A DNA stretch of 46,845 nt from Coriobacteriia bacterium (GTDB taxonomy: Bacteria > Actinomycetota > Coriobacteriia > Anaerosomatales > SLCP01), in the NCBI GenBank assembly GCA_035685585.1, contig DASSAH010000346.1:1-46845 (forward strand). Direction: 5' to 3'. Position 1 is the first letter of the stretch. Each line of letters begins with the position of its first letter. Both the position numbers and the translations under genes were made by a program. The notes below the pieces were generated by a model. It saw only the letters and a program-made list of their open reading frames with translations, was not told the DNA's origin and did not search any database. This document shows, in pieces, positions 1,956 to 46,845 of this stretch.

Positions 1956-2108
1956 CTATTTCCCCTCCGCGTACAGCCCGTTGACCACGCGCATGACGTG
2001 CTCGATTTCCTTGACCGCGTCGTCCTTGCCGTTGCGCCTGGCGGAGTCGCGCCACTTGCGCAGCAGATCGCAGGCGCGCAGGATGTCGGCGGCGGTTATC
2101 GCAGCCAC
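1956..2108 (-). CDS. Small hypothetical protein (50 aa)
   Basis: GTG at 2108 is preceded by GGGAGGGGAG. The longer ORF 1956..2180 would overlap the upstream gene by 85 nt. Start choice is uncertain. Confidence 0.4.
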   Translation of the reverse strand: MAAITAADILRACDLLRKWRDSARRNGKDDAVKEIEHVMRVVNGLYAEGK

Positions 2109-3331: not shown

Positions 3332-4788
3332 GCGTTTGCTCCTGCGAAAAGTGGTAGCTCGTCGTTGACGCGCCGCTCTGCCATCGCCGCGTATTCCGGT
3401 TTGAGCTCGATTCCCACGCCTCGCCGGTTCAGCTTCGCGGCCACGAGTAGCGTCGTGCCGGCGCCCGCGAACGGGTCAAGAACGGCGCAGGGGACGGGAT
3501 CGCCGTCGTGGGAGCAGGAGGGGCGGAAGCCGAGGGTGGTGCGCGTAGGCTCACGGTTGGGTACAAATCCGTCCCGCGTCATGTTCGCAGCGCGCTCCCC
3601 AAATGCACCGAGTCGCCCCTTGTTCGGTGCTGGCGCTCGCTCGGTGGGCGCATACGACTTCTCCACCACGCGCACCCAGGGCGCGCCGCACTCGGGGCAG
3701 CAGCCGCGCTCGCTGGTCCCGGCGCGGATGCAGCGCTCGGCGAGGGCCTCGGGGAACGTGGCAAAGTGGGCTTCGGGGAAGGGCTGCGTTGCGATGGTCC
3801 AGACGGAGCGGGCGTTGCGCGAACGAGGTGCTGTCCCGTTCTCCTCGGTGGCATCCCAGCGGTCGTTGAATCCCACGACGTGATGTGAATTGCCGGGCAT
3901 CTGTGCGGCGGACTCTCTCTGCTTGTCTGTGAAACGGCCGTTTCCTGCTCTCCCATGATCTACCGTGTCCCAGCCGGCCGGGACCTTCTTGCGCTTCCGG
4001 TTCTGCATGTGTCCGGTGTAGCCAACATCGGGGCGGGGGCCGAACGCGAGCAGATCCGGGCGCGTGGTTATTCCTGGCTCTTTGACCGCCTCCGAGTCGT
4101 AGAAGTACCGCGCCGACTTCGACAGCAGGAACACGTACTCATGCGCTTTTGTCGGCCGATCGGTGACGCTCTCCGGCATGGGGTTGGGCTTGTGCCAGAT
4201 GATGTCCGCGCGCAGATACCAGCCGTCGGCCTGCAGCGCGAGCGCGAGCCGCCAGGGGATGCCGCACAGGTCTTTTGGTTTCAGGCTTGCATCGGTAGTG
4301 ATTCCGTGCTTGGAACGCTCACCCTTCTCTCTGCGCTGCCCCTCCTTGCTCCAGTCGCCCATCGGCTGCGCGACAGTTCTCAGTGAGTTGTGCGAGAACA
4401 TGCTTGTAGCGTAGCTATCCCCCATGTTCACCCACACCGTGCCGTCGCTGCGCAGCACCCGGCGCACCTCGCGGAACACGGCGACCATCTTGTCGATGTA
4501 CTCCTCGGGCGTGCGCTCAAGGCCGAGTTGCTGGTCGATCCGGCGGGCGCCGCACTTGCGGCAGATCGAGGCGTCGACGCCCGGGCGCTGGCCTGTCGTG
4601 ATGGCGCCGGGGGCCTTCGTGTCCTCTACCTGCCCGCCTACGCTGTGCTTGCACTCAGGGTCTCCGCCATCCCATGTGCCAGTGCCGTAGTCGCGCAGGC
4701 CCCAGTAGGGCGGGCTCGTGACGACGCAGTGCACGCTCTCGTCGGGCATCGTGCGCAGGATGGTGAGGGCGTCGCCGACGTGGATCAT
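3328..4788 (-). CDS. DNA methyltransferase, beta-class N4/N6 family (SPPY type, probably N4-cytosine)
   Basis: Motif IV TSPPYW near the N-terminus and motif I LDPFAGAGTT near the C-terminus. Cys-rich inserts (CKH...CRKCG; CCPECG). ATGA overlaps on both sides. Confidence 0.85.
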   Translation of the reverse strand: MIHVGDALTILRTMPDESVHCVVTSPPYWGLRDYGTGTWDGGDPECKHSVGGQVEDTKAPGAITTGQRPGVDASICRKCGARRIDQQLGLERTPEEYIDKMVAVFREVRRVLRSDGTVWVNMGDSYATSMFSHNSLRTVAQPMGDWSKEGQRREKGERSKHGITTDASLKPKDLCGIPWRLALALQADGWYLRADIIWHKPNPMPESVTDRPTKAHEYVFLLSKSARYFYDSEAVKEPGITTRPDLLAFGPRPDVGYTGHMQNRKRKKVPAGWDTVDHGRAGNGRFTDKQRESAAQMPGNSHHVVGFNDRWDATEENGTAPRSRNARSVWTIATQPFPEAHFATFPEALAERCIRAGTSERGCCPECGAPWVRVVEKSYAPTERAPAPNKGRLGAFGERAANMTRDGFVPNREPTRTTLGFRPSCSHDGDPVPCAVLDPFAGAGTTLLVAAKLNRRGVGIELKPEYAAMAERRVNDELPLFAGANA

Positions 4789-5510
4789 GCCTCGTGCTCC
4801 GTGAGTTGCGGCTGCTCGTACTCTGTGCGCTCGAACAGGCGCGGGCGGTTAAGCCATGCCGCCTCGATGCGCTTGCACGCGATGTCGAAATACTTGGGCT
4901 CGATCTCGATACCGATGAAGCGGCGGCCGAGGTTGACGCACGCAACGCCCGTCATGCCGCTGCCCATGAAGGGGTCAAGGATGATTTGCGCGTCTGCAAC
5001 AAAACTGAGACACCACTCCATCACCGCAACGGGCTTTTGCGTCGCATGCACCCGCGCCTCACCGCGCTCAGAGTCGCGCAGCATACCGTTCCACATATGG
5101 GCAAGGAGGCGCGCAGGGCCATCAAGGTTCGTCCAAGCCATCTCGCAATCGGCGAAGTCATTGACCGTCGTCCCGCGCCTCTTATCCCATACAAGCCAGC
5201 GCGCGGACTTTGGCAGACGTGCGGCATAGTGATTGCCGCCCCATAGGATTGACGGCACGCCAAGCGCGATAATCGGCGCCGGGTCAAAGTCGGTCTCGTC
5301 GCCACGCACAATGTCCTTGCCGGTGAACCGCTTTTCGTACCGCGAGCCATCACGATCACGACGCCTGATTCCGCCTCCACCGCCGCCGGGCGAATACCCA
5401 ATTCCATACGGCGGGTCCGTGACCACGGCGTCCACCGGCCCCAGCGTCGGGAGCACTTCAAGGCAGTCACCGAGGTACAGCGTGCAGTCGCCGATCTGCT
5501 CAGTACGCAA
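4785..5510 (-). CDS. DNA N6-adenine methyltransferase, beta class (DPPY type)
   Basis: VTDPPYG, HATQKP, LDPFMGSGMTG. TTG start at 5510 preceded by GGGGAGGGGGAAG. The 110 upstream codons of ORF 4785..5840 are Arg/Ser-rich and overlap 5500..6168. Confidence 0.8.
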   Translation of the reverse strand: MRTEQIGDCTLYLGDCLEVLPTLGPVDAVVTDPPYGIGYSPGGGGGGIRRRDRDGSRYEKRFTGKDIVRGDETDFDPAPIIALGVPSILWGGNHYAARLPKSARWLVWDKRRGTTVNDFADCEMAWTNLDGPARLLAHMWNGMLRDSERGEARVHATQKPVAVMEWCLSFVADAQIILDPFMGSGMTGVACVNLGRRFIGIEIEPKYFDIACKRIEAAWLNRPRLFERTEYEQPQLTEHEA

Positions 5511-6168
5511 CGCTTCCCCCTCCCCACTCGAACACCGCCGCCATCCCGTCGCGCTCGACGAACCGGAACGCCCGCGGATTCCGCTCCACAAGACGCCGCT
5601 GGTAGTCGAACGCCTCGCCCGCCTTGCTCTCGTACCAGTAGAAATCCATGAGCACGAGCCGCGCGCCCGATGCGAGGTGCGGGCCGAAGGTGGCAAGTTT
5701 CGCGCGCGTGTAGCGCTCGTCGCAGCCGATGTCGTCGACGAGCAGGCCGATCGGGCCGCCGATATAGGCGGCGTCGAACAGGTCGCCTTTGTTCGCCAGG
5801 ATCGGGGCGCGCATGACCGTCCGCGCGTCCCACTGCGCACCGCCGAGGCCGCCGAGCACCGGGCGGAACGGCGCGAGGTTCGCGATAAATAGCGGCAGCA
5901 GGTCGTCGGGCAACTCCTGGCCGTGATACTGGCGCGCCTTGCCGCGCAGGTCGCAGATCGTCGCGTCCCAGGTGTCGTAGGCGTGGATCTCGCGGTCGGA
6001 ACCGAGAGCGAGGTAGGCCGTCGTGCTCCCGAGATACGGGCCGATGTCGACGATCGCCTGGCCCGGAGGGACAGCGCCCGCGAGGCGGATCAGCGTGTCG
6101 GCGATGCGGCGCCCGCCATGGCCGAGGTCGTGGATTGCGTCGGCGAGAGCGCGGAGGTTTGGTGTCAT
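5500..6168 (-). CDS. TylF/Methyltransf_24-like SAM-dependent methyltransferase-like protein
   Basis: IVDIGPYLGSTT...IHAYDTWDAT...LLVDDIGCDE...RLVLMDFYWYE. Paralogous to the C-terminal domain of 2096..3331. Confidence 0.65.
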   Translation of the reverse strand: MTPNLRALADAIHDLGHGGRRIADTLIRLAGAVPPGQAIVDIGPYLGSTTAYLALGSDREIHAYDTWDATICDLRGKARQYHGQELPDDLLPLFIANLAPFRPVLGGLGGAQWDARTVMRAPILANKGDLFDAAYIGGPIGLLVDDIGCDERYTRAKLATFGPHLASGARLVLMDFYWYESKAGEAFDYQRRLVERNPRAFRFVERDGMAAVFEWGGGSVAY

Positions 6169-6446
6169 GCGGACCTCACGGCTGCGATAGTCAGGCGACG
6201 CGCAAAGTCGAGATTGAATCCAGCCGCGCTAGTCGTCGACGGCCAGTCACACCAGCGCTCCGAGCCCCACATGTGCCACTTGCCGCGGCGTAGCGTCGTA
6301 ATCCGCAGGTGTCGTCGCGGGCCAGTCCAGAATCCAGCGCCGACCTTCCAGCGAAACGCGCGCAGGACTATCGCGCGCGAAGCCGCCGGCCTCTCGAAAG
6401 CTCCGCGCCGCTCGAATCGATTCCGCTCTATCGAAAATCCGCTCAC
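6165..6446 (-). CDS. Hypothetical protein (93 aa)
   Basis: GTG at 6446 overlaps the upstream stop as GTGA and is preceded by GAGGTGAAGG. Its stop overlaps the next start as ATGA. No recognisable family. Confidence 0.5.
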   Translation of the reverse strand: MSGFSIERNRFERRGAFERPAASRAIVLRAFRWKVGAGFWTGPRRHLRITTLRRGKWHMWGSERWCDWPSTTSAAGFNLDFARRLTIAAVRSA

Positions 6447-7012
6447 GCCTTCACCTCGTAAAACCACGTCCATTCCTCGCCGCGCTCGACGCGGTAGGCC
6501 CAGGGCCCGAGAAACGCCGTCACCGCAGCCTGTACCGCGCCCTGGTCCGGCCGCCCGTAGTCGTGCCCGCAGAGCAGACCGCCCGGCCGCACCTTCGGCG
6601 CCCACGCGCGCAGGTCACGCGTCACGCCATCGTAGGAGTGGTCGCCGTCGAGGAAAGCGAAATCGAGCGAGCCGTCGGCCACGCAGCCGGCGGCCGTTAC
6701 GCTGTCCATGTGCAGGATGCAGCGCCGCTCGACCCATGGCGCCGTGCGCCGCTCGGCCTCCATGCGCGCGAGGTCGAACGTCCGCTGCGGGTGCCTCGCC
6801 ATCTGCGCCCCGCTGGCGTAGTAGCTGTCCTCCGGCGGCGGCGCGAGCCAGCGGTCGACCATGTAGAGCCGAAGCCGGGGCCGGGCCGCGAGCAGGCGCT
6901 CCGAGAGGCGGCCCTGCCAGACGCCGACCTCGGCGCCGACGAGCGCGCGGTCTGCGGGCAGGCGGGACAGGATCGCGTCCCAGCGGTGGGCGCGGGGCTC
7001 AGAGCGTGGCAT
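6443..7012 (-). CDS. Class I SAM-dependent methyltransferase (Methyltransf_24-like)
   Basis: VGAEVGVWQGRLS...LYMVDRW...LDFAFLDGDHSYDGV...GGLLCGHDY. ATG at 7012 preceded by GGAGGGAG. Confidence 0.7.
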   Translation of the reverse strand: MPRSEPRAHRWDAILSRLPADRALVGAEVGVWQGRLSERLLAARPRLRLYMVDRWLAPPPEDSYYASGAQMARHPQRTFDLARMEAERRTAPWVERRCILHMDSVTAAGCVADGSLDFAFLDGDHSYDGVTRDLRAWAPKVRPGGLLCGHDYGRPDQGAVQAAVTAFLGPWAYRVERGEEWTWFYEVKA

Positions 7013-7769
7013 CGCGGTACTCCCTCCAGATCCGCGCCGCCTTGCGGAGCTCGGGCGGCAGATCCTCGACCGGCGTCGAGCCAAGCACGGCCCATCGCAG
7101 CGTGCCCTTGACGTGCAACATGCGGCACTCGGGGCCGATGTCCGCCCAGTCGTCCTGGCAGGCGTTCCACTCGCGGCACGGCAGCGCGATCACGCGGGCG
7201 CCGATCTGTGGTAGCTCTTTTTTCACGAGATACCAGAAGCTCGCCTGATTCATCCCGCATGTCGCGCGCCGCCAGGGCTCGTGGAAAACGGGGTCGCGAT
7301 ACATCTGCAGGTCGACCTCGCGCCAGCGGCGGAAAAACGCTTTCGCCGCGGCGGTCGGGCGCACAAAGATGACGCCGCCGTTGATAGGCAGGCGCGGATT
7401 GCTGGTCTGGGTGTAGGCGATGTCCCACGGCTGGTCGATCGGCGTTTCGTAGCCTCCCCACTCGGCGAGGTGGAACGCATCCTCGACGCTCTGCAAGCAC
7501 AGCATGTCGCAGTCGGATAGGATCAGCGGCTCGCCCGCTGCGCGTACCGCCTTCTCCCACTCCCGCAGCTTCGCGTTATTGCTCGTGTACGCCGTGCGCT
7601 TGCCGGGGATTCCGGCGGGCGGGCGCATCTTGATTTCCTCGAACGTGACGCCGGGCATGTTGCGGGCGCACGAGGCGCGGAACACGCGGGAGAGCTCCGC
7701 GTAGGCTCCGGCGTGCGCGCTCGGGGCGCGGCCGTCGTCGTAGTCAAACTCGCAGGTGATGAGTTTCAC
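6999..7769 (-). CDS. GT-A fold nucleotide-sugar glycosyltransferase (GT8-like)
   Basis: DxD-like LILSDCDM, NGGVIFV, GMNQASF and C..WN motifs typical of GT8-type enzymes. GTG start overlaps the upstream stop (GTGA at 7766-7769). Confidence 0.6.
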   Translation of the reverse strand: MKLITCEFDYDDGRAPSAHAGAYAELSRVFRASCARNMPGVTFEEIKMRPPAGIPGKRTAYTSNNAKLREWEKAVRAAGEPLILSDCDMLCLQSVEDAFHLAEWGGYETPIDQPWDIAYTQTSNPRLPINGGVIFVRPTAAAKAFFRRWREVDLQMYRDPVFHEPWRRATCGMNQASFWYLVKKELPQIGARVIALPCREWNACQDDWADIGPECRMLHVKGTLRWAVLGSTPVEDLPPELRKAARIWREYRDATL

Positions 7770-7948
7770 TCGATGACCTCGTAGAGCCGCACCATGTCCT
7801 CCATGCGCACGTCGCACTTGACGAGCTTCAACAGGCATGGCACACAGGTTGCCCGGAGCCCGAGCGTGATTCCGTCCGCTTGATCCTTGAGCTTCGCGCC
7901 GACGATCATCAATGTCCGCTCGCATCCGCAATTTGAACACCGCGTCAT
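7766..7948 (-). CDS. Small zinc-ribbon protein (60 aa)
   Basis: CSNCGC...CVPC cysteine pairs. ATGA/GTGA coupling at both ends. Confidence 0.6.
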   Translation of the reverse strand: MTRCSNCGCERTLMIVGAKLKDQADGITLGLRATCVPCLLKLVKCDVRMEDMVRLYEVIE

Positions 7949-8373
7949 TCTCCTACCTCCACCGGGCTCCCGCCCTTGTCAAACTCGAACGCCCCGCCCT
8001 TCTCGCGCACGACCGTCGAAAACCCGCCCGCCTTGCGCACCTGGGCGAGAAAGTTGATCTGCTCTTTCGTCGTCGTCACGTTCTCTGTTTTCAGTTCACA
8101 AGCACAAAACTGCGCGATCTGTGAGCCGATCATTTCCGCTGTCACCCGCACGCTGCGCCAGCCGATCAGGTCTGACGAGCCCTCGCACAGACCGAACCGG
8201 ATACGGCGCCCGGCAATCTCGTAGATCACCGCCGCGCCCGACCGCGTGCTCGACGGGTAGCTGCGAAGCTCGCGGCCGACGAACCCGACGCCGACGGAGT
8301 TGCGGAAAAGCCGCCAGCCTTGGCGCGTGGACCATAGGAGAAAGCGCTTGAGCAGCGCGGATTCGTGGTTCAT
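7945..8373 (-). CDS. VRR-NUC domain (PD-(D/E)xK) nuclease
   Basis: GSSDLIGW...FCACELKTE...TTKEQINFL matches the VRR-NUC D...E.K...Q pattern. Confidence 0.75.
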   Translation of the reverse strand: MNHESALLKRFLLWSTRQGWRLFRNSVGVGFVGRELRSYPSSTRSGAAVIYEIAGRRIRFGLCEGSSDLIGWRSVRVTAEMIGSQIAQFCACELKTENVTTTKEQINFLAQVRKAGGFSTVVREKGGAFEFDKGGSPVEVGE

Positions 8374-9725
8374 GCGGCCCCCACGGTGCTGAGCGTCAGC
8401 GCACGCGCGAGCCCGGGCGGGACCGCGTTGCCGATCTGACGCACTTGGTCGGTTTTCGTCCCGGCGAAACGGTGCTCGACCGGGAACCCCTGCGCCGCGG
8501 CGAGCTCGTGTGGCTGCAGCATGCGGAACGTGATGTCCAGCGTGTAGGGCTCCCCGTCGACGAGGGCGAAGCGGTCGCGAGTCGTCACGGTGTCGAGCGG
8601 GTCAGCGATCGCGAGCGGCCCGCTGGTGCCGTAGTAGGGGACAATGAACGGGCGCACGAGGCCGTGCCCGTTGCGGGCGCGGATCGCCGGCACTGGATCG
8701 CTCACTCGCCGCGGGGCCCCGGGCGCGTCCTGGTGCAGAATGAACGGCTCGACGAGTCCGAACTTGCCTCCCCCACTTGCGGGGATCGTCGGGCAGGGCT
8801 CGCCGATCGCGTGCGTCCGCGGCTCCTGGCCGTCGCGCTCGCCGTAGTGAGGCACGAGGAAGGACTGCACAAGCCCGACCTCGCCGCGGTGCGCCGCCGT
8901 GACCGTAGCCAGCGGGTCGTCTACCGACTGAACGCGCCCGCCGTGGGTGAGCATGAGCAGGAACGGTTCGGCCCACGCGCCCCAGTACCGGCGGATCCCG
9001 GCCTCGATGCGGCGCAGGGTAGCGGGCGCGAGCGGGCGCTTGCGGTCAAAGATGCTCTGCCCGCGGATGCTCCAGTCGATGATCTCGCCGGCCGAGCGCC
9101 ACGGCTGCGCCCCGAACAGTCCCGGCTCCCGGGCGTGTGTTGGTTCCGGCCAGAGGATGCGGGCCCCGCCACGGGCCGCCTGCAGGAACAGCCGCCGGCG
9201 CGTCGTCGGGTCGCCGTAGTCGGCGGCGCAGAGCACCTGCCACTCGACAGTGTAGCCCATGGCCCGCAGCGCCGCGACGAACGCCTGGAACGTGGCGCCC
9301 TTCTTGGACGCCAGCGGCTTTCCGTCGGCCCCGAGCGGCCCCCACGAGACGAACTCGGGCACGTTCTCGACGATCACCCGGCGCACGTAGAGCTCGCTGA
9401 GCCACTTGAGGATGAGCCAGGCGCTCGCCCGGCTCTGGTCGCTCCGCGGTCGGCCGCCCCGGGCGATGCTATGATGGGTGCACTCTGGTGAGGCCCAGAG
9501 CAGGTCGACGCGGTCCCGGGGCGCGAACACGTCGAGCGGGTTCAGCGTGGCGAGGTCCTGGCAGTAGGACCTCGCGTCGGGGAAGTTGAGCTTGTGCGTC
9601 TCGATGGCGACCAGCCAGTGGTTGACGGCCGCAAGGTCGAGCCGGAGGCCGGCGGAGGCCGCGGCCTGCACGATGCCGCGCGTCTCGCCCCCGCCGCCGC
9701 AGAACAGGTCCGCTATTCGCGTCAC
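8370..9725 (-). CDS. DNA (cytosine-5) methyltransferase
   Basis: Motif I DLFCGGGG, motif IV ASPECTHHS, motif VI ENV, motif VIII TTRRRLF, motif X QIGNAVPP. GTG at 9725 overlaps the primase stop (GTGA), with GGAGGGGG upstream. The 157 upstream codons of ORF 8370..10196 overlap the primase gene. Confidence 0.9.
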   Translation of the reverse strand: MTRIADLFCGGGGETRGIVQAAASAGLRLDLAAVNHWLVAIETHKLNFPDARSYCQDLATLNPLDVFAPRDRVDLLWASPECTHHSIARGGRPRSDQSRASAWLILKWLSELYVRRVIVENVPEFVSWGPLGADGKPLASKKGATFQAFVAALRAMGYTVEWQVLCAADYGDPTTRRRLFLQAARGGARILWPEPTHAREPGLFGAQPWRSAGEIIDWSIRGQSIFDRKRPLAPATLRRIEAGIRRYWGAWAEPFLLMLTHGGRVQSVDDPLATVTAAHRGEVGLVQSFLVPHYGERDGQEPRTHAIGEPCPTIPASGGGKFGLVEPFILHQDAPGAPRRVSDPVPAIRARNGHGLVRPFIVPYYGTSGPLAIADPLDTVTTRDRFALVDGEPYTLDITFRMLQPHELAAAQGFPVEHRFAGTKTDQVRQIGNAVPPGLARALTLSTVGAA

Positions 9726-12280: not shown

Positions 12281-13177
12281 TTACTTTGAACTCATCATGG
12301 GCGGCAGAATGACGCGGGTCTTTTTTTGCCCCTTGTTCAGAATGGAAAGTAGCGCGTGCCCGCAGGCTACGTGGTCTGCTCGTGTTGAACCGATGAGCAC
12401 GAATTTGTTGATCTGATGCCGAAGTCCCTCGATCCCGACCGATATCATGTTGTCCAGCGGGAAGCTACGGAAGTCCACGGAAGGATTCATCTGCACGACG
12501 TAGAAGAGTCCCTTCAGTTCCTTGGACGCGATCGGTGTCCCCTGCGCCACCTCTGCCAGGAGTCCGAACGTCTGATCGGCGGCGGCCCTGTTCCTCTGGA
12601 TCATCCAGTAGATTGTTTTGATCGCCGTTGTTTGAAGGCCACGCGGGCTCCCCGGGGCGAACTCGTAGCCGTGCTTCTTGACCAAATCGTCGGCGAGCAT
12701 AGCGATCTCGACTCCCGCGACGCGCGCTCCCTTGTGGTCCTCGTATGCAGAGCAGCGAATGCGAGAAGTGTTGATCTTCCAGAATGCGAGAGCCTCTTCC
12801 TTGGTAGCCCCCATCTGGTAAACCATGCAAGGCAGCTTGTCGATGTCGTCGCGGAGATTGGCGGCCCTCAGCCTGCGCCCGCCCTCAACGACAAAGTAGC
12901 CGTCGACGGTGTCCGCGACATGAAGGGTCCCGAATGCCGGCCACCAGAACTCGCGCGCGATTTCGAGCGTCTTTCCCTTTGCTCTGATTTCGCGCTGGTA
13001 ATTAAGGTCGAGCATCAGATCCTTTTTCGGAATCATCTTGAAGACGCCGGCCTCTTCGAGTTTCTTCCAGTGATAGCGTGCAACCTTGGAGATTCCATTC
13101 CTCCCGTTGACGCCCTCGTTTGATCCGACCGCCCTCAATAGGCTGTCTTCCTTCAATTCCTCAAGAACTCGCTCCAT
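12281..13177 (-). CDS. ParB/sulfiredoxin-like N-terminal domain protein
   Basis: LDLNYQRE...YFVVEGGRRLRAA (ParB GxxR-type motif). ATG at 13177 preceded by GGGGGAA. Visibly lower GC than flanking genes. Confidence 0.6.
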   Translation of the reverse strand: MERVLEELKEDSLLRAVGSNEGVNGRNGISKVARYHWKKLEEAGVFKMIPKKDLMLDLNYQREIRAKGKTLEIAREFWWPAFGTLHVADTVDGYFVVEGGRRLRAANLRDDIDKLPCMVYQMGATKEEALAFWKINTSRIRCSAYEDHKGARVAGVEIAMLADDLVKKHGYEFAPGSPRGLQTTAIKTIYWMIQRNRAAADQTFGLLAEVAQGTPIASKELKGLFYVVQMNPSVDFRSFPLDNMISVGIEGLRHQINKFVLIGSTRADHVACGHALLSILNKGQKKTRVILPPMMSSK

Positions 13178-13185
13178 GTTTCCCC

Positions 13186-13959
13186 CTACAGGCTGTCGCC
13201 CCACGCGGTAAGTTTCTCGACCAGTTCAGAGACGTATCGCTTGATGCTTTTCTTCCTGATCGACTTGAGCCGCCTTGTGATGGTGACGAACATTTCGTCA
13301 ACCACTGTTCCCTCAAGCTCTCTCAGTTCATGGCTAACCTCCTTGCGTCCTACACTGTGGGCGCTCTCCGCCTTCTCTCCTGATAGCACCGCCCTCGCTT
13401 CCTCTGGATTTGTGGCGACAACCGCAGCGGCCTCGTGAACTGCCCTGCGCGTCGGTCCATCTCCGCGAACGATGTGCTGCTCGATCTCTGGTTCTACCGC
13501 CTTCACGATTTCCACGTCCCGCGCGAACGCGGCGTCGCGCTCGATGGTGCGTGAAGTCACGCCGTGTTCAACGGCGAGTCGTTTCGACGTTGGGCCGTCC
13601 ACTACGCCACTTTGTCGGAGTGAGTTCTGCTCGCCCGGCGCCTTCTTCAGCCTGTTGTACCGCCGCCCACGGATCAGGGCTGCTTGGTCGGGCGTCAGGT
13701 TGCGCCGGCCGAGCTGGTGCGCGTCGATCCAATCCTCCGCATCTTCGCGCGAGCGAAGCGATACATGGGCCACTTGAAACTCGACTCCGAGCCGCTGGCA
13801 AATCTCATAGCGGTTGTGGCCGTCGAGAAGGGTATCCTCCTCAAGCCACACGATGAGTGGATCGAGGCATCCGTCTGCCTTGATGCTCTGTTCCAACAGG
13901 CCGCGCTCTTCGTCGCGAATTGGCGGGATCAACGAACGGAAGCCCTCGTCTATCTTCAA
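13186..13959 (-). CDS. ParB-like nuclease domain protein
   Basis: SLIPPIRDEE...DPLIVW...LLDGHNRYEIC...RRNLT. TTG start preceded by GAGGAGGA. Lower GC. Confidence 0.75.
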   Translation of the reverse strand: MKIDEGFRSLIPPIRDEERGLLEQSIKADGCLDPLIVWLEEDTLLDGHNRYEICQRLGVEFQVAHVSLRSREDAEDWIDAHQLGRRNLTPDQAALIRGRRYNRLKKAPGEQNSLRQSGVVDGPTSKRLAVEHGVTSRTIERDAAFARDVEIVKAVEPEIEQHIVRGDGPTRRAVHEAAAVVATNPEEARAVLSGEKAESAHSVGRKEVSHELRELEGTVVDEMFVTITRRLKSIRKKSIKRYVSELVEKLTAWGDSL

Positions 13960-15424: not shown

Positions 15425-15513
15425 TTCCGGGCCGCCCACACGATCAGGGCAGCCACGGCAACAGACGCCAAGGCGACAAGCGCCTGCGCGAGATTCGGGC
15501 CTATCTCGATCAT
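15421..15513 (-). CDS. Small membrane protein (30 aa; below the ORF-track size cutoff)
   Basis: Hand translation: MIEIGPNLAQALVALASVAVAALIVWAARK. ATGA overlaps at both ends. Confidence 0.4.
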   Translation of the reverse strand: MIEIGPNLAQALVALASVAVAALIVWAARK

Positions 15514-16004
15514 GCCCGCCCTCCCCGCGTGCACTCCCGCTCGCCGAGCGCGGCTATCGCGCTTTTGATCGCCGCCGGGACCGTTGAGCACGCCATGCCG
15601 GGAAACTCGTTATTGATCGTGACGAGGTATCCGTCGCTTCCGTCGGGCATGTCGGCGCGCTCGATATAGAGCCCGTCGTATTCGTCGAGGGCTGTTTCGA
15701 TCGTGCTGATCCGCTCGCCCGGGACACTCTTGCGGTTGAACCGCGTGCGGTACTTCTGGCCTTGCATACCGAGGCGCTTTAGGACGTTGAGCACGGTGCC
15801 CGTCGTGACGCCGACCTTTTCGGCAATCTCCTGCACCGAAACGCGCTTGAGGCGCAGCTCGCGGATCGCCTCGTCGTGGACGCGAGTGCGCCCGTTCTGC
15901 GACCCGTCGTGGTGGCCGCGGTTCTGCCCGTAGTGGCCGTGCTGTTCGCGGCCGACCATAGTGCCGCCGACTGTTCCCATCGGTCCTATCAGTGCCGTGC
16001 TCAT
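15510..16004 (-). CDS. HTH DNA-binding protein
   Basis: VSVQEIAEKVGVTTGTVLNVLKRLG helix-turn-helix. ATG at 16004 (ATGA overlap, GAGGAGG upstream). Confidence 0.6.
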   Translation of the reverse strand: MSTALIGPMGTVGGTMVGREQHGHYGQNRGHHDGSQNGRTRVHDEAIRELRLKRVSVQEIAEKVGVTTGTVLNVLKRLGMQGQKYRTRFNRKSVPGERISTIETALDEYDGLYIERADMPDGSDGYLVTINNEFPGMACSTVPAAIKSAIAALGERECTRGGRA

Positions 16005-16273
16005 GCTCTGACCTCCTCGAGCTGCGCCAGCCCGCACGCCATGCAACAGCCGGCGGCGTCGCGGACCAGCGGCGCGCGGCAGTGGTCGCAGGTCTGGCGG
16101 GCAGGCAGCCTGAAGTGCTTGTCGCGACAGGTTGTGCAGATCCCGTGCGTCACCAGTGGGCCGCCGGGCTTGCTCTCATAGACGTGCGGCGTCGGGGCGT
16201 CGTCGCTGCCGATCACGCTTTGGCACCACGCGCAAACACGGACCATCGGGGCGCTAACATGCACCTGGTTCAC
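16001..16273 (-). CDS. Cys-rich zinc-binding protein (90 aa)
   Basis: CAWC...CTTC...CDHC...CCMAC. GTG start preceded by GGAGGAG. Confidence 0.55.
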   Translation of the reverse strand: MNQVHVSAPMVRVCAWCQSVIGSDDAPTPHVYESKPGGPLVTHGICTTCRDKHFRLPARQTCDHCRAPLVRDAAGCCMACGLAQLEEVRA

Positions 16274-16288
16274 GGCGAACTCCTCCGG

Positions 16289-16951
16289 CTACTCGGGCAG
16301 CCGCTTGCGGTGAATGGCGGACCAGATTTCGATTGCCTGCTCGCGGGTCCAGGGCGGCCGGGAGCCCAGCCGTTCGCCCCAGCGCAGAAAGGTCATGCGC
16401 GAGGCGCCGAGGTATTTCTCCAGCGTCGCGGCGCTGACAGGGAAGGCGGAAGCGACCGAGACCATGAGCGTGTTGCGGCCGCGCTCGTAGGACACCGGCT
16501 GCAGGTAGCCGTGGTGGCCGCGGTAGGGCTGCGCGTGCGGCATGGTGGACTCGGGAAGGGATAGGAGGGCGGGAAGGCCCATGAAGGCGCGGGCCTCGGC
16601 GGGGGTTGCGATTCCAGCCTTGACGGCGCGCTCGCCAACGATCCAGCGGACGGCGAGCGGGTCTGTCGCGGGGGCGGGCTCGTCCAGCGTGATTGCGGGT
16701 TTGCGACGGGCGTTGTCGGCGAGCAGGTCGGCCAGCGTGTTGTTTCCGCCGGCGCGGATAATGGCGAGCGTTTCGGGGAGGTCGAGCATGGCGGGGCGTC
16801 CGTGGCCCGCCTCCGAGAGCTTGAGCGACGCTGACACGATTTCTGGGGCAGCTGACCCGGTAGCCGTGCCAGCCTTTATCCAGTCGCGGACCGTCTGTTC
16901 GCCTACCCCGCACAACTCCGCGATCTGCTTGATGGTCATGCTTTCAGCCAC
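16289..16951 (-). CDS. MerR/excisionase-type HTH DNA-binding protein
   Basis: MTIKQIAELCGVGEQTVRDWIKAG at the N-terminus, with a second HTH-like segment SAATLEKYLGASRMTFLRW. The start may instead be the ATG at 16939. Confidence 0.65.
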   Translation of the reverse strand: MAESMTIKQIAELCGVGEQTVRDWIKAGTATGSAAPEIVSASLKLSEAGHGRPAMLDLPETLAIIRAGGNNTLADLLADNARRKPAITLDEPAPATDPLAVRWIVGERAVKAGIATPAEARAFMGLPALLSLPESTMPHAQPYRGHHGYLQPVSYERGRNTLMVSVASAFPVSAATLEKYLGASRMTFLRWGERLGSRPPWTREQAIEIWSAIHRKRLPE

Positions 16952-17114
16952 GGGCGGCCTCGGTTTCCAGCATCGGGAGGCCCTTCAGGATCGCCTGCTC
17001 GATAGTCCTGTTCCGGCTCCAAACCTTCTCTATGGCGACCTGTTCAACGGCCTTCACGAGCTCGCCAGGAAGCCGAATCGAAAAGGTCGCATAGGCTGTT
17101 TCCGTCGTTTCCAT
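16944..17114 (-). CDS. Ribbon-helix-helix (Arc/CopG-type) regulator, 56 aa (below the ORF-track cutoff)
   Basis: Hand translation: METTETAYATFSIRLPGELVKAVEQVAIEKVWSRNRTIEQAILKGLPMLETEAARG. This is a beta-strand/helix/helix pattern. It is a paralogue of the N-terminus of 17223..17606 and the first gene of the leftward operon. Confidence 0.7.
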   Translation of the reverse strand: METTETAYATFSIRLPGELVKAVEQVAIEKVWSRNRTIEQAILKGLPMLETEAARG

Positions 17115-17120
17115 GCTGCC

Positions 17121-17149
17121 ACCTTACCATGTTTGAACATGTTTGTCAA
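17121..17149 (-). promoter_or_regulatory. Candidate leftward early promoter (-35 TTGACA, 17-nt spacer, -10 TAAGGT)
   Basis: The minus strand reads TTGACA-aacatgttcaaacatgg-TAAGGT-ggcagc-ATG. The transcript would be near-leaderless. Alternatively, AAGGTGG is the Shine-Dalgarno site and the promoter lies elsewhere. Confidence 0.45.
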
Positions 17150-17208
17150 CTCTCAAAAAAACATGTTCGCACCTTGACGCCGATAACAGAAGTGGTTAGA
17201 ATATGTTG
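17128..17208. promoter_or_regulatory. Operator-like CATGTT repeats in the divergent control region
   Basis: CATGTTTG at 17128 and 17138 (10-bp phasing, inside the leftward promoter spacer). The palindrome AACATGTT occurs within GAACATGTTT (17136-17145) and AAACATGTTC (17159-17168). TATGTTG at 17202-17208 follows the rightward -10. Confidence 0.55.
17174..17202 (+). promoter_or_regulatory. Candidate rightward promoter (-35 TTGACG, 17-nt spacer, -10 TAGAAT)
   Basis: TTGACG-ccgataacagaagtggt-TAGAAT, followed by GGAGGG and the ATG at 17223. Confidence 0.6.
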
Positions 17209-17222
17209 CGGAGGGTACAGGG

Positions 17223-17606
17223 ATGGCAGATTCGGATTACAAGAGCTTTTCTGTGAGGCTCCCGCTCTCGCTGCTCGACAAGGTCGGCAGGATCGCCGCG
17301 GGGCGCGAGTGGAGCAACAATAAGGTCATCATCAAGGCTATCGAGCGCGGCCTCCCGATCGTGGCCGAAGCTGATTTGAGTGGCCCGACGCCCCAGGGAC
17401 CACCGCCCGCGCCGGCGCGTCACCGGTCCCGAGCGCCCCGCATCGAGGGCGAGCAGCCGAGCCGCGGCTACAGCGGCACGCTGCCCTTTAAGTCGACTTC
17501 TGATTATACATTATACGAAGCTGGCGCCGACCCCTCCGCACAGATTGGAGAAATTGACCGCCTTATGGAAGAAATTGACCGTTGCGCCGACAGGGACGCC
17601 GCGTGA
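17223..17606 (+). CDS. Ribbon-helix-helix regulator with low-complexity C-terminal tail
   Basis: YKSFSVRLPLSLLDKVGRIAAGREWSNNKVIIKAIERGLPIV aligns residue-for-residue with the 16944..17114 product. SD GGAGGG. Confidence 0.7.
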   Translation: MADSDYKSFSVRLPLSLLDKVGRIAAGREWSNNKVIIKAIERGLPIVAEADLSGPTPQGPPPAPARHRSRAPRIEGEQPSRGYSGTLPFKSTSDYTLYEAGADPSAQIGEIDRLMEEIDRCADRDAA

Positions 17607-17634
17607 CAATGCCCTCCGAAATGGAGGCCCCGCC

Positions 17635-17931
17635 ATGCTCACGATTCACCCGGATATCGGTCTGCACCAACGACCGCGGCCACGGCTCGACAGTTCGCCG
17701 ATGCCGTTCTGCCACTGTACGACGCTCACAGCGATCACGTACCAGCCCGATCTACTGCCGATGCTGCGCTGTCTCGACTGCCCGCGCGTCTACGTCGCCG
17801 TGCCGCTCGACGACTGGAGGGCATTCATGCGGCGGGCGTACATCGACCATGTCAACCAGGTCCACCGCGCCCACGCGGCAGTCCGCCACTTTTGGACGAC
17901 TGCGGCAGAGCCGCATGCTAAACTGTCATAG
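17635..17931 (+). CDS. Hypothetical Cys/His-containing protein (98 aa)
   Basis: ATG at 17635 preceded by GGAGG. FCHC...CLDC. The upstream part of ORF 17380..17931 overlaps the RHH gene. Confidence 0.5.
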   Translation: MLTIHPDIGLHQRPRPRLDSSPMPFCHCTTLTAITYQPDLLPMLRCLDCPRVYVAVPLDDWRAFMRRAYIDHVNQVHRAHAAVRHFWTTAAEPHAKLS

Positions 17932-17941
17932 GAGGCCACGT

Positions 17942-19114
17942 ATGTACCGTATCGGTTCCCTTATCGCTTTCTGTACCATTCTGGTTCTCTTCGCAGCCTG
18001 CGACCCGGCCAGCGACGACGCCGGCCGTCCGGTGCGCGCCGCGGTGACAGACGCTACGGGCCTGTTTCTCCAGACCGCGGGCGCCGGGCGTTCCGCTCGC
18101 GCCGCGTCCCTGGTAGGCGGCGAGCTCGCGAAACTTGCGCCCGGCTACGTCGGCCCGGTCGAGTTTACCGACGCCGAGGGCAAGCCGGTCACGCTGCTCG
18201 TGTCTCAGGCGGCCGAGCTGCGCGCGGATCGCCTGCTCATCGTGCACGACCAGGGCGCAAGCCTCATCGACATGGGGACCGGCGCCATGCTCGACGTGCC
18301 CACGCCCGCGCGGCTGGACCTGGCGCGCACGACCGCCGATCACGTCTATTACGTCGCCGGCAACAGCCTGCACCGGGTCGCGCTTGAGGACGGGGCGGAT
18401 CTGCTCATGTCGGGCGACGCGGATATCCCCGGCCCGTCGCGGCTCTACGTCACGCCGTCGGGCGCCGTGTTCTCGGGGCATGCAACGTCGGTCCCGGCTG
18501 GCCGCCGCTACTGGGTCAGCTACCCGGACGCGACGCCCCCGCTTGACCTATCGAGTGACGGCAACGCAATCCTGTTTTTCGAGGGCCTGGCGGGGTTTGT
18601 GATCGAGCACGCCGGCACGCTCTACCAGATCCGCGACATGGGGATGCAGCTCGGCGCGACGGAGATCACACTCGACCCTGACGGCCCGCTCTATGTGTCG
18701 CCCGGGACCGAGGCCGTCTGCGACTCGGCAGGGCCGTACTACGCCTGGACGCGGCTCGCGGAAAACCTGTACACCGACGATGCGCATATCTACCGCTTCG
18801 CGGGCACCATAATCACCAGCTACCCGCAGACGGCCGAGGTATCAAGTGGCGCGTGGCTGCCGGACGCCAAGGTCGACGGTGATGCGCTATACATCGGGTG
18901 GGACGCGGGGGGCACGCTCAAGGTGCGGGCGCTGGACCTCGCGGCGGCCGGGGCGCAGACGGCGTTGCTCGACGAGCCCGCGGCATCGGACTACGCGGTT
19001 GTCGCCGGGAGCATCTTCTACGTCAAGGCGGACGGAACGTGGAGAAAGGACATCACGACGGGCACGGTCAGCAAGTACTCGGACACGCCGGCGGAGATCG
19101 AGGCGGTGCGGTAG
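17942..19114 (+). CDS. Predicted lipoprotein, repeat-rich (beta-propeller-like?) (390 aa)
   Basis: ATG at 17942 preceded by GGAGG. Signal peptide plus lipobox MYRIGSLIAFCTILVLFAAC. Recurrent ..YYV/LYV/FYV.. strands. The upstream 120 codons of ORF 17582..19114 are Arg/Ser/Thr-rich junk. Confidence 0.65.
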   Translation: MYRIGSLIAFCTILVLFAACDPASDDAGRPVRAAVTDATGLFLQTAGAGRSARAASLVGGELAKLAPGYVGPVEFTDAEGKPVTLLVSQAAELRADRLLIVHDQGASLIDMGTGAMLDVPTPARLDLARTTADHVYYVAGNSLHRVALEDGADLLMSGDADIPGPSRLYVTPSGAVFSGHATSVPAGRRYWVSYPDATPPLDLSSDGNAILFFEGLAGFVIEHAGTLYQIRDMGMQLGATEITLDPDGPLYVSPGTEAVCDSAGPYYAWTRLAENLYTDDAHIYRFAGTIITSYPQTAEVSSGAWLPDAKVDGDALYIGWDAGGTLKVRALDLAAAGAQTALLDEPAASDYAVVAGSIFYVKADGTWRKDITTGTVSKYSDTPAEIEAVR

Positions 19115-19188: not shown

Positions 19189-19216
19189 AGGCCCCGGCAA
19201 GTGTCGGGGCCTTTTT
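19189..19216 (+). terminator. Rho-independent terminator between convergent genes
   Basis: AGGCCCCG-gcaagtgt-CGGGGCCT followed by TTTTT. Confidence 0.75.
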
Positions 19217-19217
19217 G

Positions 19218-19565
19218 TCAGCGGACACACGAGCAATTACTCCCCCACACCTCCCGCCCAGCAATCTCTGACCAGTGATTGTCGTGCGTCCTGCCGTGGT
19301 GCATCGTCCACGCGCCCAGCACCTGTTCATCAGACCAGTAGCGATCACCATCGTAGGCCCGGATCTCCCGAGCAAACTTTCCGCCCCTGCCAAGCCCAAG
19401 CATCGTTCGCCAGAAGCGAGCCTGCTTGAATCCGGGCCGACACGTCAAGATCATGTAGACGCCACTCTCGTAGGTAACGCGCTGGCCGAGCATCCGCAAG
19501 AGGCGGCCGTTCTCGAAATAGCCCTTGTCGGGCTCCACGTCGGCGCTGCATGGTATCTGTGTCAC
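19218..19565 (-). CDS. Hypothetical 115-aa protein (candidate toxin/effector partner of the upstream RHH)
   Basis: GTG start overlaps the RHH stop (GTGA). Lower GC than the genome average. No family recognised by eye. Confidence 0.55.
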   Translation of the reverse strand: MTQIPCSADVEPDKGYFENGRLLRMLGQRVTYESGVYMILTCRPGFKQARFWRTMLGLGRGGKFAREIRAYDGDRYWSDEQVLGAWTMHHGRTHDNHWSEIAGREVWGSNCSCVR

Positions 19566-19744
19566 GCCTCGGCCTCCTCGCCGCCAAACAGATTGACCGG
19601 CTTCGCCTCCAGTTCTCCGCGCTCGACGCGCGACATGATAGCCGACCGGCAGTAGGCGCTCAAGGCGATCCGCTCCTTTTTTGCGGCAGCCGCTACCCGG
19701 TCACGATCCTCTCCGCTCAGATAGACAAACAACTTTGCTACCAT
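19562..19744 (-). CDS. Ribbon-helix-helix (CopG/antitoxin-like) protein, 60 aa
   Basis: MVAKLFVYLSGEDRDRVAAAAKKERIALSAYCRSAIMSRV is a strand-helix-helix pattern. ATG at 19744 preceded by AAGGGG. Confidence 0.6.
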   Translation of the reverse strand: MVAKLFVYLSGEDRDRVAAAAKKERIALSAYCRSAIMSRVERGELEAKPVNLFGGEEAEA

Positions 19745-19797
19745 TACACACCCCTTTGGCGGCTCTCTACTACCACTATCGCATAACCGCCACAACC

Positions 19798-19826
19798 ATC
19801 ATACACCGGATGCGTCATGCTGTCAA
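19798..19826 (-). promoter_or_regulatory. Near-consensus sigma70-type promoter for the RHH/115-aa module
   Basis: The minus strand reads TTGACA-gcatgacgcatccggtg-TATGAT (17-nt spacer). The 5' UTR contains the inverted repeat TGGCGG...CCGCCA. Confidence 0.6.
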
Positions 19827-19829
19827 ATA

Positions 19830-20241
19830 AGTAGCGTTATGGTAGCGCGTGGGAGCGCCGAGACACCTATATCTACACCCCTGTCTGTGTAAGCCGTGTA
19901 GTTCTGTGCAGCCCCCGCGCGGCCCCACACTCTCACTAACTCCTTTTAATGTATGTATATATATAAGAGGGCGCATGTCCCATCACACTTACACACTTGC
20001 ACAGTACGTAACGTGCGTGTGCGCGCACGCGTGGACGTAGTTCGGCGTGTCATTTGTGCAAGCGACCACTCCTATAGGTGTGCTTGTGCGGCTGATTTGC
20101 TGTGTAGCTGTGCAGAATGCAACTCGCGTGCCAAAAGGTACTGTCCCGGCGCCGCTTTCTCCGAGGGTAGGCGTGTGCCGCTCGGCTGTCGCGCACTGAG
20201 GTTTGACAGTGTTAAGTTAACGGTGCTACAGTTAACGCATT
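19830..20241 (+). promoter_or_regulatory. Non-coding region upstream of terS; candidate cos/packaging-initiation region
   Basis: About 410 bp with no credible ORF, directly upstream of a Nu1-like terS (as in lambda). It contains an AT-rich tract (19945-19968), a 23-nt alternating purine-pyrimidine tract with the palindrome GTGCGCGCAC (20011-20033), repeats GTGTAG(TT)CTGTGCAG (19896-19911 and 20102-20115), repeats AGTTAACG (20215-20222 and 20230-20237), and TTGACA (20203) with TACAGT (20227). Confidence 0.45.
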
Positions 20242-43544: not shown

Positions 43545-43816
43545 GCCTTGGCCGCCGGGTCGAGTGTCGCCGCCTCGATTTCGTGCCCCTCTGCCGTGTT
43601 TCCCCATATGGGGCGGCCGGTCTGGAGGATGCGGGCGATTATCCGCTCGACCACAGGTGTCAGCACGTCCTCGGCCGTTTTCGCGAGCCTCTTCTTGTGC
43701 CTGCCAGCATCGGCCAGGGCGGCCCGGCGAATGTATGGCGCGAGCTTTTCGCCGCCGGCGGCAAGCCGCAAGAGTGCGGCCTGCTCGTCGTCAAACGTGA
43801 CTTTGATCTCCGGCAT
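43541..43816 (-). CDS. Ribbon-helix-helix-like protein (91 aa)
   Basis: MPEIKVTFDDEQAALLRLAAGGEKLAPYIRRAAL is a strand-helix-helix pattern. The ATG shares a base with the recT stop (TAATG). Confidence 0.5.
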   Translation of the reverse strand: MPEIKVTFDDEQAALLRLAAGGEKLAPYIRRAALADAGRHKKRLAKTAEDVLTPVVERIIARILQTGRPIWGNTAEGHEIEAATLDPAAKA

Positions 43817-44742: not shown

Positions 44743-44983
44743 GCGGGGCCTCCTGTCTATTCGTTACGGTCGCGTGCGCGACCGCTTTTGTTGCGTGCCG
44801 CACCCATGCCTGCTGCCCGCCCTCCCATCGCTCGCGGTGCTTGCGCGCCGGTCCCTGCCAGCCGAGCCGCGCGAGGGCACGCGCCCACCACGGCGGGCGG
44901 TAGGCCCGGCGATGCTTGCGGTCAAGTTGGCGCAAGTAGGGGCGCATATCGGAGCGGGCGTGCTTCCAGCGGCGGGCGCTCAC
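44735..44983 (-). CDS. Small basic hypothetical protein (82 aa)
   Basis: GTGA overlap with the upstream stop. Arg/Trp-rich. The coding call rests mainly on coupling geometry. Confidence 0.4.
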   Translation of the reverse strand: MSARRWKHARSDMRPYLRQLDRKHRRAYRPPWWARALARLGWQGPARKHRERWEGGQQAWVRHATKAVAHATVTNRQEAPRG

Positions 44984-46743: not shown

Positions 46744-46845
46744 GCGTTTATCCCCCGCACCGCCATACCGGCCGCGGCGCACGCCTCGCGGAGCCCGCGG
46801 CGCCGCTTCTCCTGCGGCGTCAGCGGTCCCGTGTAGCCGGCCGGG
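46705..46845. repeat. Direct terminal repeat, copy 2 (identical to 1..141)
   Basis: Exact 141/141 identity read directly. Confidence 0.95.

Follow-up and report, generated by a model that had tools for sequence, protein, structure and literature searches.

The window analysed here, the whole 46,845-nt stretch of contig DASSAH010000346.1, holds a phage genome in whose control region two paralogous genes for ribbon-helix-helix (RHH) proteins, RHH-L and RHH-R (16944-17606), diverge from a 108-bp spacer. Our results suggest that these are two autoregulated RHH modules placed back-to-back, whose products probably cross-regulate each other, a reading to which we give a probability of about 55%. We infer the DNA binding, the assignment of each protein to its sites, the transcription start sites and the cross-talk from the sequence. 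The initial annotation had proposed an RHH-only genetic switch in which the two proteins compete for shared operators, and the comparative data partly argue against a bistable switch of this kind.

In the mechanism that we propose, transcription from the leftward promoter (P_L) would begin at the A of the RHH-L ATG (17114), and the mRNA would be leaderless. RHH-L dimers would bind 8-bp palindromic AACATGTT boxes, two of which (boxes 1 and 2), one helical turn apart, would fill the P_L spacer, where a dimer of dimers would occlude RNA polymerase. This would place the early arm in a negative feedback loop like that of CopG or Reg576 (PMC6294495). The rightward promoter (P_R) would drive RHH-R, a Cys-rich protein and a lipoprotein; RHH-R, Mnt-like, would probably autoregulate through a TAAC-N7-GTTA element in the P_R spacer, and the paralogues would probably cross-regulate like Arc and Mnt of phage P22. 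The two proteins are the following:

16944-17114, minus strand: RHH-L, a 56-aa RHH protein, first gene of the leftward early arm.
17223-17606, plus strand: RHH-R, 127 aa, in which an N-terminal RHH domain is followed by a Pro-rich linker and, as a low-confidence prediction, a C-terminal helix.

The initial annotation had described an unlisted 56-aa open reading frame (ORF) as a paralogue of the first rightward gene. This ORF is present, has no alternative start further upstream, and its product is 18/45 identical to RHH-R (40% over 45 aa, E 2e-12, BLASTP). The residues inferred to contact DNA from the beta-strand are T10, S12 and R14 in RHH-L, and RHH-R has S, S and R at the same positions (S/T, S, R). 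A word-indexed protein search gave one close homologue at first, and an exhaustive HMMER search recovered 90 relatives; the loci with genomic context came from this search and a profile re-search. When a profile of 28 of the 90 relatives was compared with solved structures, the 24 best of 26 matches were all RHH proteins, with matches to EndoAI (4.2e-5), AmrZ (4e-4), CopG, Arc, VapB26 and MazE6. Moreover, Pfam RHH_1 is matched by 13 of the 28 family members (best 1.8e-8) and Arc by 5 of the 28. On this profile evidence we accept RHH-L and RHH-R as members of the RHH superfamily with a predicted fold. Low-confidence AF2 elements follow the strand, helix, helix order that the fold would predict and comprise helices 17-29 and 36-43 after an extended N-terminus in RHH-L, and strand 11-13 followed by helices 15-27 and 34-41 in RHH-R, whose C-terminal helix (104-126) is likewise a low-confidence AF2 prediction.

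Matches to named repressor families were weak. PHROG 'transcriptional repressor', CopG-like and Arc-like families gave sub-threshold matches (E 5e-4 to 0.08), and PHROG 582 'Arc-like repressor' weakly matched the two proteins (E 0.0038 and 0.083). Neither RHH-L nor RHH-R matches the Arc family PF03869 at E <= 1. RHH-L scores 23.8 bits (E 3.4e-5, cut-off 30) with YlcI/YnfO (NCBIfam NF041551), a family of small proteins of E. coli cryptic prophages that RHH-R does not match. Note that the family of RHH-L and RHH-R also includes single-chain tandem RHH-RHH proteins (P0005, P0011, P0012 and P0027), which would form pseudo-dimers and thus suggest that diverged RHH domains of the family are able to pair.

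The spacer between the two genes contains both predicted promoters:

17149-17121, minus strand: P_L, with -35 TTGACA (17149-17144), a 17-nt spacer and -10 TAAGGT (17126-17121).
17174-17202, plus strand: P_R, with TTGACG (17174-17179), a 17-nt spacer and TAGAAT (17197-17202), 10/12 consensus.

The back-to-back promoters of the initial annotation are present. The description of near-consensus does not fit the leftward -10, which matches TATAAT at only 3 of 6 positions and is preceded by an extended -10 TG (TGGTAAGGT); the P_L -35 is perfect. The two -35 hexamers do not overlap and lie 24 bp apart, and transcription from P_R is predicted to start near 17208-17210. The pattern TTGAC-N17-19-TAnnnT occurs five times in the genome, compared to 0.38 +/- 0.57 expected (300 dinucleotide shuffles, none reaching 5). 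All five matches (P_L, P_R, 19826>19798 on the minus strand, and 20203>20232 and 22835>22864 on the plus strand) are upstream of gene starts and outside the gene models used, and two of them fall within the 108-bp spacer.

The same spacer also contains four related boxes and a further candidate operator (O_R):

17126-17133: box 1, ACCATGTT, on the -10 side of the P_L spacer, its centre 10 bp from that of box 2.
17135-17144, core AACATGTT at 17136-17143: box 2, GAACATGTTT, in the P_L spacer, abutting the -35.
17159-17168, core AACATGTT at 17160-17167: box 3, AAACATGTTC, between the -35 hexamers, 6 bp upstream of the P_R -35.
17200-17207: box 4, AATATGTT, with one mismatch, covering the P_R -10/+1.
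17184-17198: candidate O_R, TAACAGAAGTGGTTA (TAAC-N7-GTTA), in the P_R spacer and into its -10, the single match in the genome.

The exact palindrome AACATGTT, which had been reported to occur twice, is found in the 46.8 kb only at 17136 and 17160, compared to 0.07 occurrences expected. With up to one mismatch it occurs seven times in the genome, and four of these are within the 82 bp of 17126-17207. All elements of the initial annotation are found at the coordinates given there, with boxes 1 and 2 phased 10 bp apart in the leftward spacer as described; CATGTTTG is duplicated with the same spacing, at 17128 and 17138. The further repeat that had been placed over the rightward -10/+1 is box 4, an imperfect copy that resembles the form of the P_L box in one relative (L007, AATATGTT). 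The 10-nt arms of boxes 2 and 3, GAACATGTTT and AAACATGTTC, are perfectly complementary inverted copies, 24 bp centre-to-centre. An RNA hairpin or terminator can be rejected as the role of this inverted repeat, which lies upstream of both predicted starts and would be transcribed from neither promoter. Rfam matched no family. Neither do the CATG boxes represent islands of restriction or methylation avoidance, since the genome shows no depletion of CATG, with 182 sites compared to 143 expected.

One could read the four AACATGTT-type boxes as shared operators of both paralogues, bound by homodimers and possibly heterodimers. The region would then be a self-contained RHH-only bistable switch of the 20-kb early arm, with episomal or carrier-state lysogeny and the lipoprotein as exclusion factor, which we consider unlikely. 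The spread of four boxes of differing quality over both promoters would fit such a switch, and so would the fact that no strong-pattern promoter match other than P_L was found for the early arm (roughly 20 kb).

Next, the region upstream of RHH-L was compared between the window and seven further independent loci with context (L001 and L008 are the same sequence from different samples). The lines below give, in gene orientation, the -35, the spacer, the -10, the gap and the start:

Window: TTGACA, AACATGTTCAAACATGG, TAAGGT, GGCAGC, ATG (17114).
L001/L008: TTGACA, CACATGTTATTGCATGT, TAGAAT, TGCTAC, ATG.
L003/L004: TTGACA, AACATGTTTAACTGCGT, GATACT, GGACTC, ATG.
L005/L006: TTGACA, AACATGTTTGCGCGTGT, TAGACT, GCTGACC, ATG.
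L007: TTGACA, AATATGTTTTAAGCTG, TATAAT, GGGGTAC, ATG.
L011/L012: TTGACA, GATATATTTTTAGGTG, TATACT, GGAGTAC, ATG.
L010: TTGACA, AGTCATTCCGGGTGTGC, TACCTT, GTGACCC, ATG.
L009: TTGACA, CAGTGTGTTCTTCTGTG, TCACAG (weak), TGCGCACCC, ATG.

All eight loci have TTGACA, a -10 and an in-frame ATG 6-9 nt past the -10, with the weakest -10 and the longest gap in L009, and an independent gene caller picks the same ATG in most of them. No consistently conserved Shine-Dalgarno (SD) sequence was found upstream of RHH-L across the eight loci. The position of the ATG and the lack of a conserved SD together give strong comparative support to a leaderless RHH-L mRNA with the predicted start site, a possibility that the initial annotation had raised. 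The sequence AAGGTGG was tried as the RHH-L SD and rejected: it overlaps the -10, is only 4 nt away from the ATG, and the seven relatives do not consistently keep anything that corresponds to it.

The six closer loci (the window, L001, L003, L005, L007 and L011) all retain the box next to the P_L -35. Searching all six-frame ORFs of the loci with hmmsearch, we found that only the window and L001/L008 encode a second RHH protein, divergent from the first. Since promoter and box are thus kept in four loci without RHH-R (L003, L005, L007 and L011), the box most likely belongs to RHH-L, which would repress its own transcription, and box 2 is the candidate conserved operator for this protein. In addition, the box co-varies with the first beta-strand contact residue: T-F-S-x-R proteins go with ACATGT and A-L-S-x-R proteins with ATATGT or ATATAT, and the N and H variants have unrelated sequences at this position. 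Autoregulation by RHH-L, rather than competition between two proteins, would be the simplest reading of the box conservation.

The rightward unit contains, after RHH-R, the following features:

17210-17215, plus strand: SD GGAGGG of RHH-R, in a 13-nt leader segment absent from L001.
17635-17931, plus strand: Cys-rich protein of 98 aa (CxC...CxxC), second gene of the operon, with SD GGAGG at 17623-17627.
17942-19114, plus strand: predicted lipoprotein of 390 aa (MYRIGSLIAFCTILVLFAAC...), third gene of the operon.
19189-19217, plus strand: strong intrinsic terminator, with hairpin AGGCCCCGGC-AAGT-GTCGGGGCCT at 19189-19212 (10-bp stem, 8 G-C pairs) followed by TTTTTG.

Past the terminator there is a convergent leftward gene pair, and then some 500 bp of non-coding DNA before the late promoter. 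The rightward unit is therefore a terminator-bounded three-gene operon (17223-19114) and not the lytic or late arm. Note that a hairpin almost identical to this terminator, GGCCCCGGC-TTAG-GTCGGGGCC, is found in L005 (about 895-925), about 45 bp upstream of P_L. The context of L005 is otherwise unrelated, and the P_L/RHH-L module may move together with the hairpin.

In L001 the divergent pair recurs, with a 63-aa RHH-L (71% identical) and a 128-aa RHH-R (P0070, 35% over 115 aa) of the same RHH-linker-tail layout. Its RHH-R gene overlaps by one base the gene for a Cys-rich homologue (720-974, minus strand; marginal similarity, E 0.001 over 17 aa). The two genes are adjacent in both phages, and the genes beyond differ from those of the window. 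The L001 P_R reads TTGACG-18-TATAAT, and both P_R promoters share TTGACG and a TAACAG(A/G)AGT(G/A)GTTA element running from the spacer into the -10. The L001 RHH-R is predicted to be leaderless, with its ATG 7 nt past TATAAT (1361-1367), and the window has 13 extra nt with GGAGGG at this place (17203-17222). A single indel is thus predicted to switch RHH-R between leaderless and SD-led translation.

The lipoprotein gene has a different distribution. L011/L012 contain a clear lipoprotein orthologue directly divergent from RHH-L across 78 bp, with neither RHH-R nor the Cys-rich gene, and the similarity between L011 and the window starts just upstream of the lipoprotein SD. The segment comprising P_R/O_R, RHH-R and the Cys-rich gene therefore behaves as an accessory cassette whose insertion would have separated the lipoprotein gene from the control region. 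In L007 the gene divergent from RHH-L encodes another lipoprotein, which has only the signal peptide in common with that of the window.

These comparisons bear directly on whether the two regulators influence each other. They could be two independent, side-by-side autoregulators, RHH-L acting on P_L via AACATGTT and RHH-R on its own cassette via TAAC-N7-GTTA, with no meaningful cross-talk and no switch. We regard this as somewhat unlikely. The P_L box accompanies RHH-L in loci without RHH-R, the P_R motif is found only beside RHH-R, the RHH-R/Cys-rich cassette immediately precedes the lipoprotein SD, where the L011 similarity starts, and boxes 3 and 4 are missing from L001, all of which independence would explain. 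However, two phages whose backgrounds otherwise differ have both retained the divergent pair, both paralogues have the same beta-strand contact residues, and the window has RHH-L-type boxes next to P_R, a perfect one at a distance of 6 bp upstream from the -35 and an imperfect one on the -10/+1. For these same reasons, i.e. the shared contact positions, the vicinity of boxes 3 and 4 to P_R and the retention of the pair in two backgrounds, cross-regulation of the two autoregulated modules is plausible.

Several observations weigh against this preferred reading. The sigma-70-type promoter model is an assumption, and no RNA runs holding the sequence were found. Taken alone, both RHH proteins are below the Pfam cut-offs (RHH_1 E 0.022, for RHH-L only), their AF2 monomer models are poor (pLDDT 62 for RHH-L and 48 for RHH-R) and were used for secondary structure only, and a Foldseek search of these models against the PDB returned nothing. 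Such low confidence is what would be expected of an obligate intertwined dimer modelled from shallow alignments. The TG of box 1 is the extended -10 TG of P_L, so part of the conservation may be promoter-derived and not operator-derived. Conservation of the O_R element, which is kept as TAACAGGAGTAGTTA in L001, is a two-sequence comparison only. Finally, boxes 3 and 4 have no conserved counterpart in L001, and box 3 is found only in the window phage, being absent from L001, L003, L005, L007 and L011; cross-regulation could therefore be peculiar to this phage, or absent.

The cassette could also have a different role. RHH-R and the Cys-rich protein could be an antitoxin/toxin-like or regulator/co-regulator pair, making up an addiction or defence moron and not a developmental regulator. 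DNA would then be bound by the RHH domain and the partner by the disordered tail at the C-terminus. An RHH domain, a long low-confidence linker and a C-terminal helix is the layout of many type II antitoxins; ParD, for example, combines an ordered DNA-binding domain with a disordered toxin-neutralising tail (PMC8251345). The genes are neighbours in both phages, with the one-base overlap in L001, and they behave as an insertable cassette. However, neither RHH-R nor the Cys-rich protein matches a toxin or defence family in Pfam, NCBIfam or PADLOC, the Cys-rich protein has no match to any family in these libraries, the similarity between the two Cys-rich proteins is the marginal one given above, and gene order and protein sizes are not diagnostic. 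We therefore consider a pair of this type very unlikely. Note that the HTH (helix-turn-helix) protein at 16289-16951, like the Cys-rich protein at 17635-17931, matched no toxin family.

The content of the genome, by comparison, bears on whether the back-to-back modules could decide between lysis and lysogeny. In a bistable lysis/lysogeny or carrier-state switch made of RHH proteins only, RHH-R would be the maintenance repressor of P_L, RHH-L a Cro-like counter-repressor of P_R, and the lipoprotein would provide superinfection exclusion. The RHH-R operon is short, terminator-insulated and lipoprotein-carrying, as in many temperate-phage repressor operons, which often carry such accessory genes (lambda rex, P22 sie). 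RHH-R diverges faster than RHH-L between the two phages (35% vs 71% identity), as immunity repressors tend to, and the scanned ORFs include no CI/Cro-type HTH-peptidase repressor, i.e. no HTH_3/Peptidase_S24 protein. However, no integrase, recombinase or transposase was found when every ORF of at least 250 aa was scanned against Pfam and/or PHROGs (control-region proteins were additionally scanned against NCBIfam and PADLOC), which agrees with the initial annotation of a genome without integrase. Partition ATPases and protelomerases were not detected in library scans of the genome ORFs either, and the ParB-like match is weak. No relative was found in 185,579 reference genomes, and hence none has been seen as a prophage, and L011/L012 keep the lipoprotein orthologue and the P_L module without RHH-R. 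The suggestion of an RHH-only control is also weakened, two HTH proteins (16289-16951 and 15510-16046) and a third RHH (19562-19744) being encoded nearby. Taken together, we doubt that the modules form a developmental switch.

Functionally, the system closest to the back-to-back modules would be the immI Arc/Mnt module of P22, and the Arc/Mnt analogy of the initial annotation is apt in that a short RHH protein and a longer paralogue with a C-terminal extension are divergently transcribed. Both systems comprise two homologous RHH proteins (here about 40% identical in the RHH domain), of which one is minimal (Arc, 53 aa; RHH-L, 56 aa) and the other longer, being extended at its C-terminus (Mnt; RHH-R). 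In both, the genes diverge from a compact promoter region with adjacent operators (Pant/Pmnt in P22), read here at the sequence level, and the short one is first in its operon. The Arc/Mnt operators are 21 bp long, and Arc and Mnt cross-regulate in P22 immI (operator details are due to Sauer and colleagues). The P22 gene organisation is mnt-arc-ant (PMC8022706), and Mnt has a third helix (PMC6294495). In contrast to P22, no antirepressor (ant) match was found downstream of RHH-L in Pfam, PHROGs, NCBIfam or PADLOC, and the similarity is at the level of the RHH superfamily only, neither protein matching Pfam Arc. With no antirepressor match and with sequences that place neither protein in the Arc family, the module lacks two defining features of immI and is not a member of it. 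It also heads a whole early arm, whereas that of P22 is a secondary immunity region inside the late operon; no CI/Cro-type primary immunity region was found in the window, and the 8-bp palindromic boxes and the predicted leaderless leftward mRNA set the window apart from P22.

Other RHH repressors resemble single parts of the arrangement. As in CopG (pMV158), Reg576 (p576), MetJ and omega, short boxes are repeated about one helical turn apart over a promoter, the RHH gene is first in the operon that it would repress, and the RHH-L family profile matches CopG structures. Reg576 binds cooperatively as two dimers (PMC6294495). These repressors are plasmid or chromosomal and have no divergent paralogue, and the AACATGTT box with the predicted leaderless layout is specific to the RHH-L family. 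F55 of virus SSV1, a 55-aa RHH protein, binds repeated short sites in its own and early promoters, controls early viral transcription and, as a single small RHH, holds the virus in the carrier state without an HTH CI-type repressor (PMC9608457). It resembles RHH-L in being small and having repeated short sites at its own promoter. It differs in acting as a single protein on archaeal fusellovirus promoters, through an 11-nt direct-repeat site and with host RadA coupling, and in sequence it is unrelated to the proteins of the window apart from the fold.

The likeness to lambda CI/Cro lies in the architecture: divergent promoters, a short region with several related boxes of unequal quality, one unit leading to early/replication genes and the other a short operon with a repressor-like and an accessory gene. 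Lambda CI is an HTH repressor with a RecA-sensitive S24 peptidase domain. The proteins of the window are RHH and not HTH, no LexA-like cleavage domain is present, and the promoters are back-to-back with their -35 hexamers 24 bp apart. To our knowledge, nearly all textbook phage switches use HTH repressors, and RHH pairs are known mainly from P22 immI.

What is new here is an Arc/Mnt-like RHH pair whose transcripts are predicted to be leaderless and whose boxes are 8-bp palindromes, placed at the one strong-pattern promoter that was found for the early arm of a novel phage lineage. If the two modules do cross-regulate, they would make up a portable regulatory cassette that is very small (about 660 bp for two proteins and four boxes), which would bear on the control of early transcription in phages without CI/Cro or integrase and could serve as a compact synthetic-biology part. 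If they do not, they would be an ordinary pair of autoregulated RHH modules.

The phage itself is carried on a soil-metagenome contig of 67% GC with a 141-nt exact direct repeat at its ends (1-141 and 46705-46845). The contig therefore appears to be a complete circular genome (46,704 bp), for which such a terminal repeat is expected. Gene calling based on GC3, together with PHROG and Pfam scans, describes a contractile-tailed (myovirus-type) phage with two arms, and the RHH pair is located in the 3-kb control region that separates them:

17114 down to 488, then over the junction to about 43158, minus strand: leftward early arm, roughly 20 kb.
488-1954, leftward early arm: helicase, followed past the junction by RecE/RecT (43816-46295).
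20242-42130, plus strand: rightward late arm, with terminase, portal, protease, capsid, sheath, tape measure, baseplate, fibres and dNMP kinase.

The early-arm genes are all on the minus strand downstream of P_L and continue over the circular junction; they encode HTH proteins, a ParB-like protein, a primase, about five DNA methyltransferases, VRR-NUC, a helicase, a RecE-like exonuclease and RecT. The large terminase subunit (TerL) is lambda-type, with at most 38% identity to any deposited phage. Neither a megablast of the region nor a tblastn of RHH-L and its HTH neighbour gave a match among 50,697 phage records. Back-translated pattern scans (three alignments) of IMG/VR, GTDB representatives and JGI metagenomes found one distant Ruminococcaceae locus only, and contigs of a second run (X2) gave tiny fragments only. 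The phage represents a lineage without cultured relatives, and the region with the RHH pair is probably its main transcriptional control region.

Additional regulators are encoded close to the RHH pair:

16289-16951, minus strand: HTH protein of 220 aa, with an N-terminal HTH_23/HTH_17, excisionase-like DNA-binding domain; second leftward gene.
15510-16046: second HTH protein, close to the control region.
19562-19744, minus strand: third small RHH-like ORF, 60 aa (MVAKLFVYLSGEDRDRV...), with weak NikA-like and ORF56 copy-control matches.

The genes downstream of RHH-L thus encode an HTH protein, a zinc-ribbon-like protein and a further HTH protein. The start of the first HTH gene overlaps or abuts the RHH-L stop, and this gene is kept downstream of RHH-L in L005, L007 and L010; PADLOC gave only HTH-level matches (mad1, REase_II), to the two HTH neighbours, and neither the RHH proteins nor their partners matched any of its defence or toxin-antitoxin families. 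The stop of the third RHH-like ORF overlaps the start of a 115-aa ORF (19218-19565). The two ORFs (19218-19826, minus strand) have their own promoter (TTGACA-17-TATGAT, 19826>19798), are oriented towards the lipoprotein operon, and may form a regulator/partner or toxin-antitoxin-like pair.

Within the early arm, the ParB-like protein (12281-13204, minus strand; PHROG 1033, E 2e-8, no Pfam match) is encoded in a patch of lower GC (60%), and no ParA partner was seen for it. A weak ParB_N protein is also encoded downstream of RHH-L in L003/L004 (L003 1550-2308). The methyltransferase-like genes (about five, minus strand: 2096-3331, 3328-4788, 4785-5840, 6443-7084 and 8370-about 9721) constitute an unusually heavy anti-restriction load for a 46.7-kb phage, and a nucleotide-sugar transferase-like ORF (6999-7940) lies among these genes of 2096-9721.

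Finally, the boundary with the late arm has two further features. About 450 bp of low-GC non-coding DNA (19745-20200), with an AT-rich core TGTATGTATATATATAAGAGGG and many GTGTG/CACAC runs, precede the late promoter and the terminase genes and are a candidate cos or origin region. The late-operon promoter (TTGACA-18-TACAGT, 20203-20232, plus strand), whose -10 is followed after 9 nt by the first late ATG (20242), holds the only two GTTAAC palindromes of the genome. The two, at 20216 and 20231, are separated by 15 bp; the spacer contains one of them and the other comes just past the -10, and together they look like an operator for a late-gene regulator.

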